Virus record (IMG/VR): IMGVR_UViG_3300017766_005733
Span: 32,001 to 96,000 of that record
Reading direction: 5' to 3' (one strand)
DNA from: a virus
Length of the DNA: 64,000 nt
Shown here in pieces: positions 4,529 to 56,605 of this stretch (the stretch's first letter is position 1; each line of letters begins with the position of its first letter). The notes under the pieces were generated by a model, which searched no databases, was not told where the DNA came from, and was given only the letters and a program-made list of their open reading frames with translations. The position numbers and the translations under genes were made by a program.

Positions 4529-6580
4529 TCAGACGCCGGCCCAGAGGCCATTGACGAAGCCACCGAGGTCGCCGCCGGCTTCTTTGATCTGGCGCAGACG
4601 CATGATTTCAGGTCGAGGATCGATGTCAAAGGTCCTCAGAGCCTCGGCCATCTTCTCTTCCGAGAGAGACGCCAGCCAAGACTTCATGCGAATGGCAACG
4701 GACGCCGGCAAATCCGGCATCAGCGCCAGCTTCTGCTTCGGCGCAAGGGTGTTGAAGGTCTCACCCTGCGGCGTCATGAAGCGAAGGTAGAAGGGCGTGA
4801 AAGATTCCTGATCGTGGGCGGGATCGAAGTGGATGCCGGCGAAGGCCGATCCATGATCAATCAAATGGATCTCGCCCTGCGGATTCATGAGCATGTTGTG
4901 GCCATGCCGATCGCCGTTTCCCGCCACCCAGTCAAGGACCGACCACTGCCAAAGGCGGCCGCGGAGGCGGTAGGACTCCATGGCCGACAGCACCCGCCCC
5001 GGATCCTGTTCTCGGATGTCGATCAGAGGCTTGAACTCTTCTGGCAGGAAGCTGATGGCGGCGTAGAGTTTGTCGTCGACCTTGACCCACTCAGTGCGCG
5101 CGAGGTCGCCCGCAAGCCCCCAAGAGCGCGCAAGCTGCCAGAAGGCGCCTTCACGGGCACTCGGCGGCGCCGGATCGTCTTGGATGCCCTTGATGGGGCC
5201 GGCGCGGCCACTGCCCGGCTTCATGTACCAAGTACCGGCGGGGGTGTCGATGAAGAAGGAGCCAGCGCTGTGGCGACCATCGAGATGCGCTGGACGCGCA
5301 GAGAAGACATTGTCAGTCAGCAGCTTGGCGACGTCTTCGCCGCTGGCGTGCATGGCCTCGATCTTCGACCTCGGCGTCACAGGCAGACTGCTCTTGGCCT
5401 CCGCCTTCGTCAAAGACTCCGACTTCACCAGCGGCATCATCTCAACCGCCGCCTTCAGGATGCCTCGGTTCTCTGCGGTGTCGGGCCAGTTGATGGCAGC
5501 CAAGGCCGTGGCCACGGGATCGGCGTCGTTGAGCCACGCCAGATGCCGCAGGCTCAACAGTGCCTCTTCGTCGTCACGGGCCTTCTCGCCCGTCAGCGAC
5601 AGCGCCGCGCGCCAATGTGCATAGACGCCGGGAGGCAACGGCAACAGGAAGTCGCGGGCAACCTCCGACTTGTCAAGGCGAGCCGTCAACAGGCGGTCGC
5701 GCAGTTCCTCGGAGATGCGAGGCGGCAGGCTACGCATCATCGCCAGATGCCGCAGCCCCTCGCCGTCATGGAACGCGGCGTCCATCCACTGCTCAGCGTC
5801 TTCCTCCGTCAACGGCGCCGACAGCGGCACGCGCTCCCACGCCCCCTGCGGCAGCACCAGTTGCTCCCAGAACTGACGCCAGACGTCTTCGGGCATCAGC
5901 GCCTGCGCATCAGGGGAAGCAGAGGCGATGAACAGCAACAGCGGATTGTCCTGCGCCGGCAAGTCCGCCGGCGAGCGCTGCGCCAGCTGACGGTAGATCG
6001 TGGGGATGAAGTCAAGGGGCACAGCGGGCATCAAGGCATCGAGCAGATGCTGGCCGGCTTCAGGTGACTCAATGGCGAGTCGCTTCAAAAGCGCATCGCG
6101 GCCCTCTTTCGTGCGCAGCTGCTGGGCATTGTGCTCCGTAGCCGCGGGGTGGCCGACGATGTCGAGAAGGCGCTCCATCTTGACGTGACGCACTACGTCA
6201 CACCACGCCTTGCCGTCGTACAGCTGGTGAACGATATGGGGCGCCGGCAGATCATCGATGACGCGATCGGCGATGGCCTGCGAGACGTGGCGGGGGCCAA
6301 ACCCCGGCATCGTGGTAGCCAGTGCCCGCTCTCTTGCGTCATCGGCGGCCAGAGCCCGGTAGGCGTCGCGCTCTTCTTCGGGCGCTGGCTGGGAGGGAAC
6401 CTCGGCCGATGCCTTGTGGTTGAGGAAGAACTCGTGTGCCGTGGCGCGGATGGCGTTAGACGCCGCGGCGTTGCCGAGGGCATCGACATTGGCGATGGCG
6501 GCGGCGATCTGGTCGCGGGTGGCGCTGGGGCTCAGGATCAGCCTCTCAGCGGCCTTCAGTGTTGCGATGACGTTGCTCAT
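4529..6580 (-). CDS. Putative head cargo protein with C-terminal PI3/PI4-kinase/HipA-like kinase domain
   Basis: WYMKPG...REGAFW...LDWVAGNGDRHGHNMLM...LIDHG; preceded by LDKSE/LVKSE/LTKAE. Confidence 0.75.
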   Translation of the reverse strand: MSNVIATLKAAERLILSPSATRDQIAAAIANVDALGNAAASNAIRATAHEFFLNHKASAEVPSQPAPEEERDAYRALAADDARERALATTMPGFGPRHVSQAIADRVIDDLPAPHIVHQLYDGKAWCDVVRHVKMERLLDIVGHPAATEHNAQQLRTKEGRDALLKRLAIESPEAGQHLLDALMPAVPLDFIPTIYRQLAQRSPADLPAQDNPLLLFIASASPDAQALMPEDVWRQFWEQLVLPQGAWERVPLSAPLTEEDAEQWMDAAFHDGEGLRHLAMMRSLPPRISEELRDRLLTARLDKSEVARDFLLPLPPGVYAHWRAALSLTGEKARDDEEALLSLRHLAWLNDADPVATALAAINWPDTAENRGILKAAVEMMPLVKSESLTKAEAKSSLPVTPRSKIEAMHASGEDVAKLLTDNVFSARPAHLDGRHSAGSFFIDTPAGTWYMKPGSGRAGPIKGIQDDPAPPSAREGAFWQLARSWGLAGDLARTEWVKVDDKLYAAISFLPEEFKPLIDIREQDPGRVLSAMESYRLRGRLWQWSVLDWVAGNGDRHGHNMLMNPQGEIHLIDHGSAFAGIHFDPAHDQESFTPFYLRFMTPQGETFNTLAPKQKLALMPDLPASVAIRMKSWLASLSEEKMAEALRTFDIDPRPEIMRLRQIKEAGGDLGGFVNGLWAGV

Positions 6581-31388: not shown

Positions 31389-33305
31389 TCAGCCCAATGA
31401 CATGAAAAAGCGGCCTTTTCTCACGGGCTTAGTGGGATCAAGACTCAGGCTGACGCCAACGTGATCTGCAATCTGCTGGCGATGCACATCGGTGACGACC
31501 GGCGATCGGCCTCCCGGAGTCTTGTTGGCCTCTGGCGCCAGAACGGTGGTCTTTCCCTTCCGGAAACGGTTCATCAGACCATAGCGTAGGGCATCGCATG
31601 CGTCGTCGTCGGCCTCGTCGGGGACGTTCGTCGGATTGCCGGCGGCGTCAACGGTCCAGTGATACTTGGAGAGGCAGCCGAACACCCAGTCGACCATCGA
31701 GTCTTCTGACAAAAAGTACAACAATGGGTCGCCGATAAGGGGTCGGATCATCCAACGAATGATTTCGATGCCCATGAGCACCGAGCCCGGCCCCTTGCTC
31801 CACTTCCTCATGTTCCAGCCGGCGTCCTTGAACTCCTTGACGCCCTGCGGGTTCTCGGGGTCGGCGTAGACCTCGGAGTTGTAGCGCCCCAACTTGGCGT
31901 TACAGAGAGCGATCTGCTGGTTGGTCAGGATCTCGGACTGCGCCACGGCGTCGATAACGAAAGCGCGACGACCGTCGACGGCGACAGTGATGGCGACGAA
32001 GTTGTGGGTATAGCCGAAGTCCATGCCCGTGACAAACTGAGCGTCACGGGACTTGAAGAAGGCGACGAGTTCTTCTTTGGTGAACGTCTCGGGGTGAATG
32101 TCTTCGCCCACCACCATGTCCGCGATCTGCTTGGGGCTCTTCATGTGGACTTCGCGGTCCAAGAAGGGGTAGATGAGGCCGCTCATCGAAGGCTTGCGAC
32201 ACAGCAGCTGCGCCTTGGCGACCTCCGCGTCGACGTTGCGGAACTGCGAGATCAGGTGCTCGATGGGCTTGTGGATCGAGGACGCCTGAGGGTACTTGGG
32301 GTTCTGCTGAACGGTCGCAAGGCGACCACGGCAGACGGCATACAGGGAGCAGTTCTTCAGGCAGCCGGAGAAAGCCTGCTCGTCAGCACACTCCGCCTTC
32401 TGGTCCTCCGTCAGCCTCTCGATCTCGGGACCAGAGTAGACGCGGATGTTTTCGTGGTCGACGAGAACGCGGACCTTCTCCTCGTCCGGCAAATGTCTCT
32501 CGGGCGGACAGCGACGTGCGATGTCGAGGATGTTCCAGTGCAGGATCCGCAGCCCCGTCTTCTGGCTGTCGTCGATCTCTTTCTGCACGAGACCGAAGGC
32601 GTACTTGCGCGTCGACGTCAAGACCGTCAACGCCGCATGACCCTTGGCGTCGGCGGTCGGAATCATCTTGGCCTCTTCGTAGGCCTGAGGATTGGCGAGG
32701 TCGACCTCGTCCGTCGTGAAGTACGGGACGTGCAGGGAGTTTGCGCCCTTTGGCGTGCAGACGACGATTTCCAGCTTGCTGCGATGCTCTTCGTATCGCA
32801 CCTGCTGGATCGGCGGCAGCACCGCCCACTGCTTTTCAGTGATGTTCTCTGCCGTCTCACGGTGCTCGTAGCGGACGAACTCCTTGATCTTCTTGTTGTC
32901 GCCAACGACGAAGCGGCTGAAATAGGGACGGCTGAAGAACTTGCCGACGTACGCCGTGGCCTTGGCCGACTGATCAAGGGTCGCGGCCATGTGGCCGGCG
33001 TTGCGATCGAAGTGGACGATCATCAGGAACTCCAGCACCGCCGCCGCCAGAGTCTTCCCACTGTCACGAGACGCATAGGCAAGGATCCGGTTCACCTCGG
33101 GGTCCCGGTTGTCCATCACCTTGCTGTAGACCTCCCATATGAAGCCCATGGGGCTGACTTTCGACTCGGGGTCGACGACGATGTCGGGGAACTCCAAGCC
33201 AATGTACTCGGCGATCCACAGCGCCAAGTCCTCCTTCGTCGTGCGACGCACGAAGGCCGTCCGATGCTTGATGATTTCCCGATCCTCGGCGCTCAGAGAC
33301 ACCAC
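31389..33305 (-). CDS. terL: Terminase large subunit
   Basis: Walker A ASRDSGKT, Walker B FTTDEVD, nuclease GMDFG...ADPE...DDACDALRY. Confidence 0.9.
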   Translation of the reverse strand: MVSLSAEDREIIKHRTAFVRRTTKEDLALWIAEYIGLEFPDIVVDPESKVSPMGFIWEVYSKVMDNRDPEVNRILAYASRDSGKTLAAAVLEFLMIVHFDRNAGHMAATLDQSAKATAYVGKFFSRPYFSRFVVGDNKKIKEFVRYEHRETAENITEKQWAVLPPIQQVRYEEHRSKLEIVVCTPKGANSLHVPYFTTDEVDLANPQAYEEAKMIPTADAKGHAALTVLTSTRKYAFGLVQKEIDDSQKTGLRILHWNILDIARRCPPERHLPDEEKVRVLVDHENIRVYSGPEIERLTEDQKAECADEQAFSGCLKNCSLYAVCRGRLATVQQNPKYPQASSIHKPIEHLISQFRNVDAEVAKAQLLCRKPSMSGLIYPFLDREVHMKSPKQIADMVVGEDIHPETFTKEELVAFFKSRDAQFVTGMDFGYTHNFVAITVAVDGRRAFVIDAVAQSEILTNQQIALCNAKLGRYNSEVYADPENPQGVKEFKDAGWNMRKWSKGPGSVLMGIEIIRWMIRPLIGDPLLYFLSEDSMVDWVFGCLSKYHWTVDAAGNPTNVPDEADDDACDALRYGLMNRFRKGKTTVLAPEANKTPGGRSPVVTDVHRQQIADHVGVSLSLDPTKPVRKGRFFMSLG

Positions 33306-51099: not shown

Positions 51100-52770
51100 A
51101 TGCTACAGCGCAACCCTCCCTCTTTTCATTGCCATCCCCAGAGCCTTGACTCGGGTTCAACCCCCGAGGCCATCATCAAGCGAGAGATGGAGTTGGGCAC
51201 GGGGACCATTACCGTCACCGACCACGGCTCCCTGTCCTGCTGCCGCAAGGTCTATGACCTCGCTCGCGGCAAGGGGCTGACGCCGATCCTCGGCATCGAG
51301 GGTTACTTCCGCGACGACAACTGCCCGATTCTGCGCGCCAAGGGCGTCGACCCCGCGAAGCACCTCAAATACTACCACATCACCATACACGCCCTCGACC
51401 AAGAGGCTTACCACAAGATCGTTTCCAAGACGTCGTTGGCTCGCACTGAGCGCCATGGCAGCGAGGTCAAGCCGCTGTTCACTTGGGCGGACTTGGAGGA
51501 GATCGGTGCCTGCAACGTCACCGTCGGCAGCGGCTGCCTCGTGGGTATGGTGCAGCGCCACCTGTTGGCGCATGGCGACTTGGCTACCGCCGAGGCCTAC
51601 TATGCGCGCCTGCGATCGATCGTGCGCCCCGGCAACTTCTACGCCGAAGTCTTCCCGCACTCCTGTACCCACAACTGGGTGCAGGGCGTCTTCGTGACCT
51701 TTGCCGACGGCACCGAGGTCCGTTACTACGACGAGAAGAACCTGCGCCTTGGCAGTGGCCTGCAGGTGAAGGCGGCGGAACTCGCCAAGGCCTTTGCCCA
51801 CAAGGGCTGGAAGGGCGACACGCTGGTGGCGGTCATGGATCGCCGGGTGTGGCGCGACCTTGAGCCCAAGGCCATCGTCAAGGTGAAGCGCGTCGAGGCC
51901 TTCATCGAGAACGAGTGCCTGCCATGGACGACCAACCCCAACGTCCAGCAGGCGTGCAACGAGATCATCCTTGGCTTCGCCGACAAGTACGGTGACCCCG
52001 TGGTCATCAGCGACGACAGCCACTACGCGACGGCCGACGACAAGATCGTGCAGGACATCCGCCTGCAGCAGCAGGGCAACTGGCGCTTCTACGGCACCTA
52101 CGCCCGCCAGTCGGCGGCCGATTCATGGGCCTACTTCAAGGCCAACAACACCACGGAGGCTCAGTTTGAGGGCTGGGTGGAGAACAACGTCGCGTGGGGT
52201 CAGCGCTTCAAGGACTTCAAGCTGGTGGAGCCGCCGTCGCTGCCCACGAAGTTCTACCCCTCCGACACCCTCAACCACACCATCGACCTCGTTCGGCAGC
52301 AGGGGCGGATGCAGTGGAAGGACCAGAAGTACGTTGATCGGCTGCGGGCGGAGATCAACCTGCTGCACTACAACAAGACCATCGATCTGCTGCCCTACTT
52401 CTTTGTGGGGGCCGACGTTTGCAACGCCTACTCGCAACAAGGATTTCTGACTGGGCCGGGCCGCGGATCGGCCGCCGGTCTCCTGTTGACGTACCTGCTG
52501 GGCATCACCCACGTCGACCCGCTGAAGTATGACCTGTCGATGGATCGCTTCCTGACCGTCGATCGCATCAAGTCGGGAAAGTTGCCTGACATTGACTTTG
52601 ATTTTCCGTCTCGGGATATTCTCGTAGAAGAGCACGACGTGGATATGATAGAAATCGTCATGGAAGACGGATCCAAGAAGATCATCTCGCCCTCTCAGAA
52701 GATCAAAACCAGTCAAGGAATGATGACAGCACAGGAAGCCTTCGATCGACAGGCTGAGGTGATCGAATGA
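51100..52770 (+). CDS. dnaE: DNA polymerase III alpha, N-terminal fragment (PHP and start of palm)
   Basis: HCH, TDHG, GIEGY, DDSHY, GPGRGSAAG, LGITHVDPLKYDL, PDIDFDF; ends in an intein-like tail. Confidence 0.92.
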   Translation: MLQRNPPSFHCHPQSLDSGSTPEAIIKREMELGTGTITVTDHGSLSCCRKVYDLARGKGLTPILGIEGYFRDDNCPILRAKGVDPAKHLKYYHITIHALDQEAYHKIVSKTSLARTERHGSEVKPLFTWADLEEIGACNVTVGSGCLVGMVQRHLLAHGDLATAEAYYARLRSIVRPGNFYAEVFPHSCTHNWVQGVFVTFADGTEVRYYDEKNLRLGSGLQVKAAELAKAFAHKGWKGDTLVAVMDRRVWRDLEPKAIVKVKRVEAFIENECLPWTTNPNVQQACNEIILGFADKYGDPVVISDDSHYATADDKIVQDIRLQQQGNWRFYGTYARQSAADSWAYFKANNTTEAQFEGWVENNVAWGQRFKDFKLVEPPSLPTKFYPSDTLNHTIDLVRQQGRMQWKDQKYVDRLRAEINLLHYNKTIDLLPYFFVGADVCNAYSQQGFLTGPGRGSAAGLLLTYLLGITHVDPLKYDLSMDRFLTVDRIKSGKLPDIDFDFPSRDILVEEHDVDMIEIVMEDGSKKIISPSQKIKTSQGMMTAQEAFDRQAEVIE

Positions 52771-53192
52771 TTTGTCAAAGATGCAACAAGGACGAGCGAT
52801 ACAAAGATGGCAAATGCAAGCCATGTGCTCGCGCAAGAGCCAGAGAAGACTACCATCAAAATGCCGAAAAACGGAAAAGACAGGCACAGGAATGGAAAGA
52901 GAATAACCGAGAAAGAGCCAGAGCCTCGGGTCGCAGGGGAGGACGAACTGATTGGCAGCCGGGTGAGCACGAAAGAGCAGAGGCCGCCCTAAAGACGGCA
53001 AACCGGTGCGAGGTCTGTGATAGCGTCGACCCTCGCCATAAACGTGGATGGAACGCCGACCACGATCACGCCACCGGGCTTTTCCGTGGCATCGTCTGCC
53101 ATCCATGCAACATTGCCATCTCTCATGTAGAGAAGTTTGACCTAGACCGCGGGCAGCAGGTCTGGTACTACCTTGCAAGGAAGAAACGATGA
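52767..53192 (+). CDS. Free-standing Endonuclease VII-type HNH homing endonuclease splitting dnaE
   Basis: CEVC...DHDHATGLFRGIVCHPCN; ATGA overlaps with both dnaE fragments; lower GC than flanks. Confidence 0.88.
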   Translation: MICQRCNKDERYKDGKCKPCARARAREDYHQNAEKRKRQAQEWKENNRERARASGRRGGRTDWQPGEHERAEAALKTANRCEVCDSVDPRHKRGWNADHDHATGLFRGIVCHPCNIAISHVEKFDLDRGQQVWYYLARKKR

Positions 53193-56100
53193 AAATCACC
53201 TCAATCAACGCCGTCACGGTGAGAGCGGAACCTTGGCTCAAGCAGCGCTTCGGCGCCGACCACTACGCGCAGATCAGCGCCGACACGACCCTGAAGCTGC
53301 GGTCGTCGGTGAAGGACGTTGCGCGCGCCACCCACGGCTCAGTGCCGCCTGACGTCGAGGAACTGACCAAGCAGTTCCAGAATCCTCCTCAGGGCATCAG
53401 CGACAGCGACTTCGTCTTTGGCTACACGGCCAACGACGAACACGTCCCCGGCAGCATCGAGACCGACGCCGCCCTCAAGACCTACATCTCCCGATACCCC
53501 AAGGAATGGGAGACGGTGCAGCGGCTGCTGGGTATCGCGCGGTCCAAGACCCGTCACGCCTGCGGCTTCATCATCGCCAATCGCCCTGTCCATGAGTTCA
53601 TCCCGTTGATGGACATCGGCGGCGTCACGGCCACGCAGTACACCTCTTCTGCCGTCGAGGCCGCCGGCGGGCTGAAGATGGACTTCCTTGTCGTCAACAG
53701 CCTTGGCGACATCAAGGATGCCCTGAACCTGATTCAGGAGGGGACGTTGCCCGGAGGCCGGGCCAGTGGCGACGAGGGTCTGCGGTATCCGGCGACGCTG
53801 GTGATCAACGGCCGCCTTGTGCCGCGCCATCGTCTTGTGCCCGACGGCAACGGCGGCTTCTACGACATTTGGGATCTGCCCGAGGATCAGGCGGTGTTTC
53901 GCGAGATCAGCGAGGGCAAGACCGAGACCGTCTTCCAGTTCAACACCCCCGGCGCCATCCAGTGGCTGCGGCACTTCAACCACTGGAAGGACGAGATGGC
54001 TGGACACAAGGCCATTGACTCCATTGAAGCCATGTCGGCCTTCACGGCCCTTGACCGCCCCGGACCCTTGGATGCCTACGTTGAGGGGCCCGATGGCCGC
54101 CAGCACAACATGCTCGTGGAGTACGCCCGCCGTGCCCGCGGCGAAGAAGCCTGTGGCAGCATCAATGCCCTGTCAGTCCTCTTTCCCGAGACCTATGGCG
54201 TCCTGACCTACCAAGAGCAGCTGCAGCGCGCGTATCGCGAGTTGACGGGCTGCAGCGGCTCAGAGGCCGAGGAGTTCCGCACCAACGTCGCGAAGAAGAA
54301 GATGGACAAGGTCCTGAAGGCCTACCCGGCGTTCATTGAGCGTGCTTCCGCCAAGGTTGGCGGCGAGCAAGTCGCCAAGACCATCTGGGAAACCTTCGTT
54401 ACATGGGGACAATACGGCTTCAACAAAACTATGGACCAAAGCACAATCTTGTCTACGGTTGACGGTGACCAGAAGCGCATCGTCGATTTCAAGGGCGGAG
54501 AGCATGTTTGGTGTGTTGATGATCATGGGCAAAAAACCGCGACCGAAGTCGTGGCGTTGCATGATCATGGCGAACTGATGGGTTGGGAACTTGAGTTTGA
54601 CGATGGCTACAAGGTAGTTGCGTCATCTCATCATAAGTTCTTGACAGAACTTGGCCAGACACCCCTTCATGAAATCATTGATCGGGATTTGGAGGTGCTT
54701 GGTGGCGTATCAATGGAAGAATCGAGTGGTGGGCATTCCAATGGCGTGCGGCCAGAGGGTGCCGAAACGCCAGAGGGCGATGCACAAAAGGGACTGCGCG
54801 ACTTGCGCGGCCGTGAAAGCGGAAAACATTCGGCAGAGGATGATTGCGCACAACACTCGGCCGGAACAGAAGGCAGCGGCCTCGGAGGCCGCTCAGAGAA
54901 CTTCGTCTCGGCGAGACATCCAGCTGCAGCGAGTGGCGCGAATGCATGCTTGGCAGCGAGAGCATCCAGAACAGATCGAGGCGATCTGGGAATCCGCCAG
55001 AAGAGCAGGCAAGAAATCGAAGGCGGAGGCATGGCTTCGATCAGAGGCGATCTTGAGTTGGCCGGATGCACAGATCCGCTGCGGGCTCAAGAAGAAGCAG
55101 GTGGACTTCGTGTCCCCAGACCACAAAATCTGGGTGGAAGTGGACGGATTCTTCCACTTTCACGAGGCATCGAAAACTCGGAAACAGTTGACGAAGATTC
55201 AGGAGAGGTACGCGATGCTGCGCGACGAAGCGCTTCGTCGCGGCGATGTGACATTGATCCGGCTTTCCGGGCAATGCTTCCGTTCTTCCGACGGGAGGAT
55301 GCATCGCGAATGGCTAGAGTGGCTTACAGCGACGCTCCGCTCTCCTGTTCCCGGAGTCTGGTGCGCCGGCGCATTGTACGAGTCCGTGCAGTGGGCATCC
55401 GCCGGATGTACGATCTTGAAGTCGCCCACCCGAAACACAACTTTATGCTGTCCAACGGAGTCGTAACCAGCAATAGTCACTCGGTTTGCTACAGCCACAT
55501 CGCCTACGCCTGCGCCTACCTCAAGCACCACTTCCCGCTGGAGTGGTGGTGCGCCGTCCTTGGCAATGCGTCAAAGAACGAGGTCGTCGACGACTTCTGG
55601 CGCCACTGCGGTCATCTCGTCAAGCTGCCGGACATCAACCGGTCGTCGCGCAAGTTCCGGATTGAAGGCGACCACATCCGCGCGCCCGTGGGCCTGATCG
55701 TGGGTGTTGGCGAGACGGCACAGCAGCAGCTACTGGCCCTCGCCCCCTTCGTTGACGTCCGCGACTTCTGCCAGAAGATCGAGGTCGATTGCGTTGCCCG
55801 CAAGACGCCGCTGATCGACAAGGCAACGGGGAAACAAAAGACGACAAAGGACGGCCAGCTGCGATGGACGAAGGGCCGCAGCGCGCTGACGCGAGGCGTT
55901 GTGCATCTCCTCATTGCCGCCGGCGTCATGGACAGCCTCTTCCCCGCCGACTCCACGCTGTCGGAGAAGATCGCGGCCTACGAGCAGGCGTCGGCTGAGG
56001 CCAAGGGCGAAAAGAAGATCCAGCCGGTGCCGCCCAAGTACCTCGTCAACAGCCGCGTCCTCAACTTCCAGCTGCGCAAGAAGGTGCTGCCCATCTACAG

Positions 56101-56605
56101 CGAGGCCCTGTATCCGCTGCTGCTGGAGGCCGACGAAGAACAATGGCCGCGGAAGGCGCTGACTCATGCCCGTCAGCCCATCTTCCGCCACATGGCCGAC
56201 GACATCCCCGTCGTCAGCCATCGCCGTCTGCAGGCGCTGGAAACCATCACGCCGTGGCCCGCGGACATGAAGATCAAGGTGGCGGTGCCGTGTGTCGTCA
56301 AAGGCCGCCGCGTCTTCTCTTACGCCAAGGGCGAGAAGGAGGCCTGCGAGTTGGACCTTGACTGCGAGGGCGGTGGCGCGGTAAACGTCGTGAAGTGGCC
56401 CGACCGGAAGACGGGTAAGATTCCGGCGTGGTACAGGAGCGACATCGCTGGTGCTATTGGCCTTGCTATCTTTGAAAAATACACCGAGCGCCGGCCCTTT
56501 GGCCTCGTCGACCTGATTGTCTTCCACCAACCAGCAACAACGGAAACCGAGAATGAGCAAGAAGCCCAACAAGATGCCGCAGAACGAACCCCAGACGCCG
56601 CCTGA
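53189..56605 (+). CDS. dnaE: DNA polymerase III alpha, C-terminal fragment, containing an intein
   Basis: KDVAR, RHACG, LKMDFL, VFQF, ETYGVLTYQEQ, YGFNK|intein|SHSVCY...AYLKHHFPLEW, PDINRS. Confidence 0.92.
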   Translation: MKITSINAVTVRAEPWLKQRFGADHYAQISADTTLKLRSSVKDVARATHGSVPPDVEELTKQFQNPPQGISDSDFVFGYTANDEHVPGSIETDAALKTYISRYPKEWETVQRLLGIARSKTRHACGFIIANRPVHEFIPLMDIGGVTATQYTSSAVEAAGGLKMDFLVVNSLGDIKDALNLIQEGTLPGGRASGDEGLRYPATLVINGRLVPRHRLVPDGNGGFYDIWDLPEDQAVFREISEGKTETVFQFNTPGAIQWLRHFNHWKDEMAGHKAIDSIEAMSAFTALDRPGPLDAYVEGPDGRQHNMLVEYARRARGEEACGSINALSVLFPETYGVLTYQEQLQRAYRELTGCSGSEAEEFRTNVAKKKMDKVLKAYPAFIERASAKVGGEQVAKTIWETFVTWGQYGFNKTMDQSTILSTVDGDQKRIVDFKGGEHVWCVDDHGQKTATEVVALHDHGELMGWELEFDDGYKVVASSHHKFLTELGQTPLHEIIDRDLEVLGGVSMEESSGGHSNGVRPEGAETPEGDAQKGLRDLRGRESGKHSAEDDCAQHSAGTEGSGLGGRSENFVSARHPAAASGANACLAARASRTDRGDLGIRQKSRQEIEGGGMASIRGDLELAGCTDPLRAQEEAGGLRVPRPQNLGGSGRILPLSRGIENSETVDEDSGEVRDAARRSASSRRCDIDPAFRAMLPFFRREDASRMARVAYSDAPLSCSRSLVRRRIVRVRAVGIRRMYDLEVAHPKHNFMLSNGVVTSNSHSVCYSHIAYACAYLKHHFPLEWWCAVLGNASKNEVVDDFWRHCGHLVKLPDINRSSRKFRIEGDHIRAPVGLIVGVGETAQQQLLALAPFVDVRDFCQKIEVDCVARKTPLIDKATGKQKTTKDGQLRWTKGRSALTRGVVHLLIAAGVMDSLFPADSTLSEKIAAYEQASAEAKGEKKIQPVPPKYLVNSRVLNFQLRKKVLPIYSEALYPLLLEADEEQWPRKALTHARQPIFRHMADDIPVVSHRRLQALETITPWPADMKIKVAVPCVVKGRRVFSYAKGEKEACELDLDCEGGGAVNVVKWPDRKTGKIPAWYRSDIAGAIGLAIFEKYTERRPFGLVDLIVFHQPATTETENEQEAQQDAAERTPDAA
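54428..55474 (+). mobile_element. Intein (349 aa) in DnaE at FNK|SHS, starting with Thr
   Basis: Removing it restores YGFNKSHS. Block B LEFDDGYKVVASSHHKFLT; blocks F/G MYDLEVAHPKHNFMLSNGVVTSN|S. Confidence 0.92.
54702..55466 (+). CDS. Vsr/DUF559-like endonuclease nested in the +1 frame inside the intein
   Basis: GGAGG at 54691-54695 then GTG at 54702; SKAE...VDFVSPDHKIWVEVDGFFHF...ERYAMLRDEALRRGDVTLIRL. Confidence 0.8.
   Translation: MAYQWKNRVVGIPMACGQRVPKRQRAMHKRDCATCAAVKAENIRQRMIAHNTRPEQKAAASEAAQRTSSRRDIQLQRVARMHAWQREHPEQIEAIWESARRAGKKSKAEAWLRSEAILSWPDAQIRCGLKKKQVDFVSPDHKIWVEVDGFFHFHEASKTRKQLTKIQERYAMLRDEALRRGDVTLIRLSGQCFRSSDGRMHREWLEWLTATLRSPVPGVWCAGALYESVQWASAGCTILKSPTRNTTLCCPTES

Follow-up and report, generated by a model that had tools for sequence, protein, structure and literature searches.

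Fractured genes, in which a Vsr-like homing endonuclease (HEN) gene lies between the two halves of a split intein, were described by Dassa et al. (2009; PMC2677866). In the loci reported there the N-terminal intein fragment (IntN) ends with a stop codon, which is followed by a spacer of 27-51 nt, and the nuclease gene overlaps the coding sequence of the C-terminal fragment (IntC) by 6-69 bp; an RNA hairpin was reported at the nuclease start. The model proposed for these genes comprises only the steps termed 'fracture' and 'in-frame insertion', and an open-frame state does not appear in the passages available from that paper. Here we describe a related element found in 64,000 nt of viral DNA (positions 32,001 to 96,000 of the IMG/VR virus record IMGVR_UViG_3300017766_005733, which has 131,625 bases; this stretch is called the window, and coordinates refer to it unless stated otherwise). 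The element is a contiguous intein in the phage gene for DnaE (DNA polymerase III alpha), whose DNA also contains, in the +1 frame of the same strand, an open reading frame (ORF) that the evidence below supports as a Vsr-like nuclease gene.

As in the fractured genes described by Dassa et al., a Vsr-like nuclease is located between the N- and C-lobes of an intein, the setting is a phage, and DnaE is among the hosts. The nuclease gene has its own start (Shine-Dalgarno (SD) sequence and GTG, 54691-54704) and its 3' end overlaps the IntC coding sequence, also as described there. Unlike in those genes, no stop breaks the host frame, so that the intein is contiguous, and a stretch of about 760 nt is open in both frames.

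HENs encoded in a separate frame of contiguous inteins are already in print, as the initial annotation of the window had suspected. Gosselin, Arsenault and Gogarten (bioRxiv 10.1101/2025.01.02.630785) report 63 of 784 inteins with non-canonical HENs, all in actinophages. The types given are LAGLIDADG and VSR-like HENs on the antisense strand and endonuclease VII-like HENs in sense 'frame 3', and an origin by invasion of a free-standing HEN is proposed. The present element shares with those inteins the contiguous splicing domain, the unstructured in-frame HEN region and the recognizable HEN in another reading of the DNA. It differs from what the preprint text describes in that the VSR-like HEN is in the sense +1 frame, runs through blocks F and G and resides in DnaE of environmental phages, and in that stop avoidance and fractured sister loci are documented here. 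The sense +1 VSR-like combination is absent from the four combinations of HEN type and strand or frame listed in that preprint. Arsenault et al. (2025; PMC11855218) described an HNH endonuclease lying out of frame in an in-frame insertion without an intein. There too the host frame is free of stops across the insertion, and the endonuclease in the other frame starts with GTG and stops at the end of the insertion; the difference is that the insertion, which has no intein splicing domain, is retained in the host protein, that its nuclease is an HNH enzyme and that no ribosome binding site was detected. The title of a 2026 preprint (10.64898/2026.09.14.751524) states an out-of-frame HEN in a cyanobacterial dnaX intein. 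In the literature searched we found no earlier description of a sense-strand +1 VSR-like/EDxHD HEN in a contiguous intein, although the supplementary tables of PMC2677866 and of the 2025 preprint could list such loci. Nor did we find described there the extension of a HEN through blocks F and G with both frames folded, the breadth seen here (50 clusters, at least four host genes), codon-level stop avoidance, or fractured sister loci at the same site.

Two further systems are related to one or the other of the two products. I-Bth0305I, of the EDxHD homing endonuclease family (Taylor et al., 2011; PMC3239194; structure 3R3P), resembles the nuclease in its catalytic fold (94 of 98 residues aligned) and in its E, D, H, D set. 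It differs in being encoded in a group I intron of recA, and it has only 8% identity to the nuclease in the structural alignment and no profile match. By profile, no solved structure comes closer to this intein family than the cyanobacterial split DnaE inteins (Npu, Ssp), and these interrupt the same DnaE motif. Their insertion point lies four residues upstream of GFNK/SH (slashes within motifs mark the insertion point), the Npu DnaE intein having the native exteins AEY/CFNK (PMC3759424), and both residue 1 and residue +1 are Cys. According to the introduction of PMC2677866, the halves of the cyanobacterial split DnaE inteins occupy separate loci, and no nuclease accompanies them.

The DnaE frame is open through an intein with a second open frame

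The phage DnaE gene occupies positions 51100-56605 on the + strand. Its reading frame contains no stop from 53141 to 56602, and it is listed as an ORF of 1138 aa (53189-56605), in which Pfam recognized DNA_pol3_alpha (E 9.4e-17), DNA_pol3_finger (E 5.8e-16) and HHH_6. The frame is therefore open through an intein of 349 aa, as the initial annotation had stated. The insertion point is GFNK/SHS.

The +1 frame is open from 54645 to 55463 and ends with a TAA codon 8 nt short of the intein end. The coordinates of the +1 ORF, with its own GGAGG and GTG, agreed with those given in the initial annotation, and the doubly open stretch, estimated there at about 760 nt, measures 765 nt (54702-55466). Within these 765 nt the third frame contains 8 stops. 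Every particular of the initial description that was checked proved correct. G+C content declines from about 0.64 to 0.50-0.56 over 54300-54900, in the 5' part of the element. A search of the whole virus record showed that the element is present in a single copy. Coordinates of all features are collected in Table 1.

The +1 frame encodes a Vsr-like nuclease

The protein encoded in the +1 frame has 22 homologues with 42-99% identity, one of which is named 'very-short-patch-repair endonuclease' by its source (Joint Genome Institute, JGI). In an alignment of 22 nuclease sequences (A1) Asp152, Glu163, Asp165, His169 and Arg204 are invariant and Asp187 is at least 90% conserved. The motifs VDF, WVEVDGFFH and LIRL, which had been picked out in the initial annotation, are present in the ORF and fall on invariant columns. 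The family thus conserves the E, D, H, D catalytic set of the EDxHD type. The catalytic residues of Vsr (Asp51, His69, Asp97) plus an extra Glu were mapped onto the nuclease from the description in PMC2677866, not by superposition.

An AlphaFold2 (AF2) model built with the A1 alignment had a mean predicted local distance difference test score (pLDDT) of 88.1. A Foldseek search with this model gave weak matches, and the fold was settled as Vsr-like by an exhaustive VIA-align search of 48,161 chains. The top-ranked chain was Vsr (1cw0_A, Z 10.0, root mean square deviation (rmsd) 3.8, 133 residues aligned, model residues 106-260), and the second was I-Bth0305I (3r3p_B, Z 8.1, rmsd 3.0, 94 residues aligned, model residues 121-233). 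Of the earlier assignment to a Vsr/DUF559-like nuclease, the Vsr-like part is upheld by this result and by the invariant columns, whereas the DUF559 profile matched only below its threshold. Altogether the evidence supports the +1 ORF as a real nuclease gene of the Vsr-like/EDxHD type.

The nuclease's N-terminal part contains a C-x11-H-x3-C-x2-C module. The copy number of such modules varies between one and four among the relatives, and repeats are visible in L001, L002, L003, L005, L007 and L013 (L numbers designate loci of the comparison described below). Judging from these patterns, a varying number of putative zinc modules may tune the target recognition of the nuclease.

No match was obtained when the nuclease was compared by tblastn with 50,697 phage records. 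A weak PHROGs match to phrog_559, 'HNH endonuclease' (E 1.4e-5), was set aside, and P5C dehydrogenase (E 0.04), the sole PDB match of the A1 profile, was considered spurious.

The open intein frame is maintained by selection in related loci

Loci related through the nuclease were collected from viral contigs (21 loci), metagenome contigs (52 loci) and species genomes (2 loci). After exclusion of four loci that contained only the tail of the gene, 72 loci, including the one described here, were grouped into 53 clusters at 95% nucleotide identity. The match spans 387-966 nt, and in 50 of the 53 clusters no stop interrupts the intein frame across it, compared with 6-25 stops in the third frame. 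The open intein frame persists in loci of low G+C content (0.37-0.42).

The nuclease genes of 15 loci (14 contiguous ones and the fractured locus L009) were shuffled synonymously, with the nuclease protein and the codon usage kept fixed. None of 5000 shuffles per locus was free of intein-frame stops in any of the 14 contiguous loci, for which the expected means were 8.1-17.9 stops. At the locus described here the intein frame has 0 stops against an expected mean of 8.1. L009 has 30 intein-frame stops, close to the 28.3 expected.

A stop in the intein frame requires a T in the third position of a nuclease codon, followed by a codon that starts with AA, AG or GA. In the 50 contiguous loci this combination did not occur at 4831 positions preceding such codons (0/4831), whereas third-position T was used before other codons in 3046 of 11,096 cases (27.5%). 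In the three fractured loci T was found before AA, AG or GA codons at 67 of 288 positions. Codon statistics of this kind indicate that selection on synonymous sites of the nuclease gene keeps the host frame open.

Logan contigs from three other runs, belonging to other studies, covered this stretch with substitutions only and no indels; one of the compared contig runs, X1, may be the source of this DNA. In the core of the overlap there are three substitutions, each of which is synonymous in the nuclease frame but changes a residue in the linker of the intein. The single substitution over blocks F and G shows the opposite pattern, being synonymous for the intein and non-synonymous for the nuclease. 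The conserved open frames, the shuffles, the stop avoidance and the indel-free contigs exclude assembly frameshifts and chance as the source of the double open frame. A compensating pair of assembly frameshifts had been named in the initial annotation as a finding that would overturn it; this is excluded by the 50 independent loci and by the contigs from other runs.

The intein frame encodes two conserved lobes and an unstructured linker

Sixteen related inteins were aligned with the one described here (alignment A2, 17 sequences). Conservation is confined to residues 1-98 and 299-349 and does not extend to the centre. Invariant residues are His45, His47, Gly48, His69, Lys70, Phe71 and Leu72 in the N-lobe, and Arg314, Gly323, Asp329, Leu330, Glu331, Val332, His337, Asn338, Phe339, Thr347, Ser348 and Asn349 in the C-terminal segment. 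Block B has the form S-x-x-H and precedes KFLT. In the AF2 model the lobes have pLDDT values of 92-97, and values below 50 were obtained for residues 99-234, 236-238 and 240-270. Pfam detected no domain in the linker region. The suggestion that the centre of the intein is disordered filler was borne out by the low pLDDT and by the lack of conservation in A2.

A Foldseek search with the intein model returned 38 matches with E<=0.001, all of which were inteins, bacterial intein-like (BIL) domains or Hedgehog autoprocessing domains. A family profile matched the PDB entries of the Npu DnaE intein (2keq, 1e-18), the Ssp DnaE intein (1zd7, 2.3e-14) and gp41-1 (4.5e-7).

Residue 1 of the related inteins is mostly Ser, with Cys in L010 and L015. 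Thr1 recurs in L013, L016, L038, L043, L044, L047, L049 and L051. Because Thr1 is found in at least eight other clusters, it is, as far as sequence comparison can tell, not a lesion of a single copy. At every related locus with a readable intein end the intein terminates in TSN, followed by Ser. By these features the element is classified as a class 1-like Hedgehog/intein (HINT) intein. Splicing is predicted on two grounds: an essential polymerase has its conserved GFNKSH motif interrupted by the insert, and there are closely related alleles without the intein.

The nuclease gene runs through the C-terminal splicing blocks

The nuclease ORF extends through intein blocks F and G, confirming that it overlaps the C-terminal splicing blocks. 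Both products are confidently modelled there: pLDDT of the nuclease is 87-97 until about residue 258, and that of the intein is above 90 from residue 311. Codon-position entropy was calculated for 14 loci. Through the core the most variable position is the third position of the nuclease codons; the third position of the intein codons is the most variable only in the last block, over F/G.

The start of the nuclease gene

The GGAGG sequence precedes the GTG at 54702 by 6 nt; alternatively, translation could begin at a TTG (54699). Visual inspection of 15 loci showed, in 14 of them, a GGAG-type SD sequence that is followed by an ATG or GTG at a distance of 5-9 nt and usually overlies the conserved G-L-E-V codons of the intein. 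In a stricter scan, from which four loci were left out whose ORF leaves the locus, an SD-preceded start upstream of the first zinc module was detected in 39 of 49 loci. The region 54640-54740 was folded in search of an RNA hairpin at the nuclease start, and none was found (z +1.35; 187 of 200 shuffled sequences folded at least as well).

Fractured relatives of the intein

The three exceptional clusters (L009, L025 and L063) have a DnaE gene that is split at the same GFNK/SH site into a split intein with a free-standing nuclease. The N-terminal part stops shortly after the intein N-lobe and is followed by the nuclease ORF. In L009 and L025 the latter begins no earlier than the IntN stop, with which the ATG of the L009 nuclease overlaps. 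The C-lobe and the remaining part of DnaE are encoded by a third ORF, whose ATG start lies within the nuclease gene's 3' part. This arrangement corresponds exactly to the one described in the passages of Dassa et al. (PMC2677866).

A maximum-likelihood tree was constructed from 50 nuclease sequences, the truncated rows L048, L056 and L073 having been dropped. L063 has the contiguous L068 as its sister (100/98), and the deepest starred split separates these two from L009 and L025, which group together (98/96). The tree requires two state changes, and the approximately unbiased (AU) test rejected a single clade of the three fractured loci (p 7.4e-7). A possible link to fractured genes had been raised in the initial annotation, and the occurrence of three fractured relatives at two separate places among contiguous ones fits it well. 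According to the tree, fractured genes appear to have arisen at least twice within the contiguous clade, the direction of change being the parsimonious one.

We looked at the frame-0 codon that overlies an invariant Trp of the nuclease (about 55290-55313 at this locus). In all three fractured loci it is ATG and serves as the actual IntC start. In 37 contiguous loci the same codon is ATG in 13, TTG in 12, GTG in 11 and CTG in one, a potential start thus being present in 36 of the 37; a further 13 contiguous loci had no motif match. The excess of TTG over CTG for the same Leu (12 vs 1, not compared against codon usage) hints at selection for an internal start. The candidate internal start at this locus is preceded by a purine-rich, SD-like stretch.

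These observations invite the proposal that the overprinted contiguous form is not a passing intermediate but a stable, selected state from which naturally split inteins directly arise. We offer it tentatively, as a possibility of somewhat less than even chance. Under this proposal one nonsense change, silent for the nuclease, would turn cis-splicing into trans-splicing, and would have done so repeatedly; a single change would suffice because a potential start codon is already present in the C-lobe. Both precursors may even now be produced by the contiguous loci, and the family may preserve the route by which the cyanobacterial split DnaE intein arose.

Mobility and distribution of the element

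Fourteen viral loci were found with a DnaE N-extein 44-92% identical to that of the locus described here. Eight have an uninterrupted GFN(K/F)SH motif and two contain this intein. The remaining four, which form two near-duplicate pairs, have other Cys1 inserts one or two residues upstream. The intein-less L079 and the intein-bearing L086, which come from the same sample series, are 87% and 80% identical in their two exteins, and their alignment breaks cleanly at an insert of 1293 nt.

The element also occurs in at least three other host genes, which are unnamed by Pfam. The nucleases from these genes form one clade, sister to the DnaE group to which this locus belongs. One viral contig of 39,854 bases has two copies (L001 and L008), one in DnaE and one in a large protein unnamed by Pfam. 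Mini-inteins of 188-201 aa were found at the same DnaE site with a 3' remnant of the nuclease gene (L018, 3700-4269; L019/L020, 3652-4215; L021, 3565-4167; coordinates of those loci). On the strength of the remnants these are probably deletion derivatives.

In the two pairs with other inserts, L084/L085 and L087/L088, the Cys1 inteins sit after GF and after GFN of the same DnaE motif. The frame of L084/L085 stops 109 codons later, and this may be another fractured gene. When the cyanobacterial Y/C site is counted, a span of five residues in the DnaE motif contains at least four insertion points. L075, a close contiguous relative with 59% nuclease identity, is located on a contig of 163,558 bases titled as a Myxococcales metagenome-assembled genome (MAG); this could be a phage contig or a prophage.

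Proposed mechanism and alternative explanations

We consider it very probable that the element is a mobile cis-splicing intein with an overprinted, separately started homing nuclease, in support of the interpretation given in the initial annotation. Ribosomes reading frame 0 would translate DnaE, the N-lobe, an unstructured linker of about 170-200 residues, the C-lobe and the rest of DnaE. The HINT lobes would then associate and splice the polymerase in cis, with Thr1 as the first residue. In the +1 frame the DNA of the linker and of most of the C-lobe would double as the gene of a Vsr-like/EDxHD homing endonuclease, translated independently from its own GGAGG-GTG. The nuclease is predicted to cut intein-less DnaE genes near GFNK/SH, and repair would copy the element into them. 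The open frame would be maintained by avoiding nuclease codons ending in T before AA, AG and GA codons, at no cost to the nuclease because selection acts on synonymous choices only. Fracture would occur by one frame-0 nonsense change, resulting in a split intein and a free-standing nuclease, if the direction of change is the one suggested above.

Several observations weigh against this explanation. In the hidden Markov model search of the two frames that had been proposed initially, Pfam DUF559 on the nuclease (E 0.039, 14.3 bits, cut-off 20.6) and Pfam Intein_splicing on the intein (E 1.1e-5, 25.7 bits, cut-off 35.8) both remained below their cut-offs. Among the relatives L004 (40.4) and L015 (36.9) passed Intein_splicing and L010, L008 and L012 failed. 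The A1 profile reached neither Vsr nor I-Bth0305I, nor any other nuclease, among the PDB sequences, and the best Foldseek match of the nuclease model was Vsr (1vsr) with E 0.038, with none at E<=0.001. The intein has unusual residues, namely Thr1 and a Ser replacing the penultimate His. As to the nuclease start, a strict SD 4-mer was absent in 10 of the 49 scanned loci; the baseline of 11.9%, obtained with random 12-nt windows, is a loose one, with several candidate starts tried per locus. Frame-0 translation across the internal start should hinder initiation there. The group submitted to the AU test was named after the tree had been seen, and the tree is unrooted, so that the direction from contiguous to fractured rests on parsimony.

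Four other explanations were considered. A canonical in-frame endonuclease could have been shifted by two compensating indel errors in the assembly, and the comparison was made at the level of contigs. The same arrangement is, however, present in 50 of 53 independently assembled clusters, the contigs of the three other runs differ by substitutions only, and an artefact could not produce the complete stop avoidance. In addition, an in-frame fused form was not found among proteins of 446-2000 aa, which by itself is weak evidence. The probability of this explanation is practically nil. It is almost as hard to believe that the second frame is merely open in GC-rich DNA, and that we are dealing with an effectively fractured gene or a relic ORF that is not under selection. 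G+C is about 59% here and long spurious ORFs are plentiful nearby, but the synonymous shuffles never reproduced an open frame in the 14 loci, loci with G+C as low as 0.37 are likewise open, and it is the fractured relatives that behave like the null expectation, both in the stop count of L009 and in their use of third-position T.

An SD-like element within a translated frame can stimulate +1 shifting, as in prfB. A +1 shift near the GGAGG during translation of DnaE-IntN could accordingly yield the nuclease as a C-terminal fusion, and the nuclease frame is indeed open for 19 codons upstream of the GTG. Against such a fusion, most loci have an ATG or GTG 5-9 nt past the SD sequence, in L009 and L025 the nuclease ORF does not begin before the IntN stop, a conserved slippery or hungry-codon motif was not seen, and no RNA structure was detected at the start (z +1.35). 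We regard it as very improbable. Homing endonucleases are known to decay after fixation, as formulated in the homing-cycle model. The nuclease could thus be a non-functional relic in a vertically inherited intein, its ORF remaining open through the overlap with a constrained intein frame, and mini-inteins that retain only a 3' remnant (L018, L019/L020, L021) do exist. The linker frame is, however, unconstrained except for stops and therefore cannot hold the nuclease frame open. The catalytic columns are invariant over 22 proteins, the third positions of the nuclease are the most variable, the three core substitutions are all synonymous for it, and close intein-less alleles coexist with the intein. 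A relic is improbable in view of this evidence, and a mobile intein with an active overprinted nuclease remains the explanation that we prefer.

With this explanation, four states of one element can be seen at a single DnaE site: an allele lacking the intein, a mini-intein that retains a remnant of the nuclease gene, the overprinted contiguous form (50 clusters) and the fractured form (3 clusters). The origin of endonuclease-bearing and split inteins has until now been argued mainly from end states. The element is also a very clean natural case of selection at purely synonymous sites that holds a second frame open. Such elements are annotated as decaying inteins or mini-inteins because gene callers report only one of two overlapping genes. 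From a practical viewpoint, the family includes Cys-free inteins (Ser or Thr1, Ser at +1), which are relatives of the fast Npu DnaE intein, as well as Vsr-like nucleases of modular build that contain one to four putative zinc modules.

Features of the locus and the neighbouring interruption of DnaE

Table 1. Features of the DnaE intein and of the overlapping nuclease gene (coordinates in the window)
Feature	Position	Strand	Basis
N-extein DnaE segment, ends GFNK	53189..54427	+	Pfam DNA_pol3_alpha, DNA_pol3_finger; junction read from sequence
Contiguous intein in the host frame, 349 aa, Thr1, TSN end, +1 residue Ser	54428..55474	+	junction boundaries, Pfam Intein_splicing, AF2, family profile
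N-terminal HINT lobe, aa 1-98, blocks A and B (SxxH block B)	54428..54721	+	pLDDT 92-97; A2 conservation
Shine-Dalgarno GGAGG, inside the L-E-V codons of the intein	54691..54695	+	sequence; comparison of loci
Nuclease gene, GTG start, 254 codons, TAA stop 55464-55466	54702..55466	+ (+1 frame)	ORF, 22 homologues, A1 alignment, AF2
Frame-0 linker, aa 99-270, unstructured, unconserved, only stop-free	54722..55237	+	AF2, A2, Pfam, shuffles
C-x11-H-x3-C-x2-C module at the nuclease N-terminus, putative zinc/DNA-binding	54747..54806	+	A1 pattern; zinc binding predicted from it
Vsr-like/EDxHD catalytic domain, residues 106-260 of the 271-aa ORF	54966..55430	+	VIA-align, Foldseek, A1 columns
C-terminal conserved segment of the intein, aa 299-349, blocks F and G, terminal Asn	55322..55474	+	A2; pLDDT 92-97 at aa 311-349
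Nuclease C-terminus and intein C-lobe, both frames conserved and confidently folded	55322..55430	+	pLDDT of both models, Vsr alignment
C-extein DnaE segment, begins SHS	55475..56605	+	sequence; Pfam HHH_6

The DnaE gene is also interrupted upstream of the intein. The ORF 51100-52770 encodes the PHP domain together with the initial section of the NTPase domain (positions 19-111 of the Pfam profile), and DnaE resumes at Pfam profile position 119 in the ORF 53189-56605. An endonuclease VII/HNH gene (52767-53192; Pfam E 1.6e-11; phrog_2633, E 9e-14) lies between the two, with ATGA overlaps at both of its junctions. Intein blocks are not evident there, and for this reason the break at 51100-53192 looks, from its gene order, like an intein-less fractured gene.

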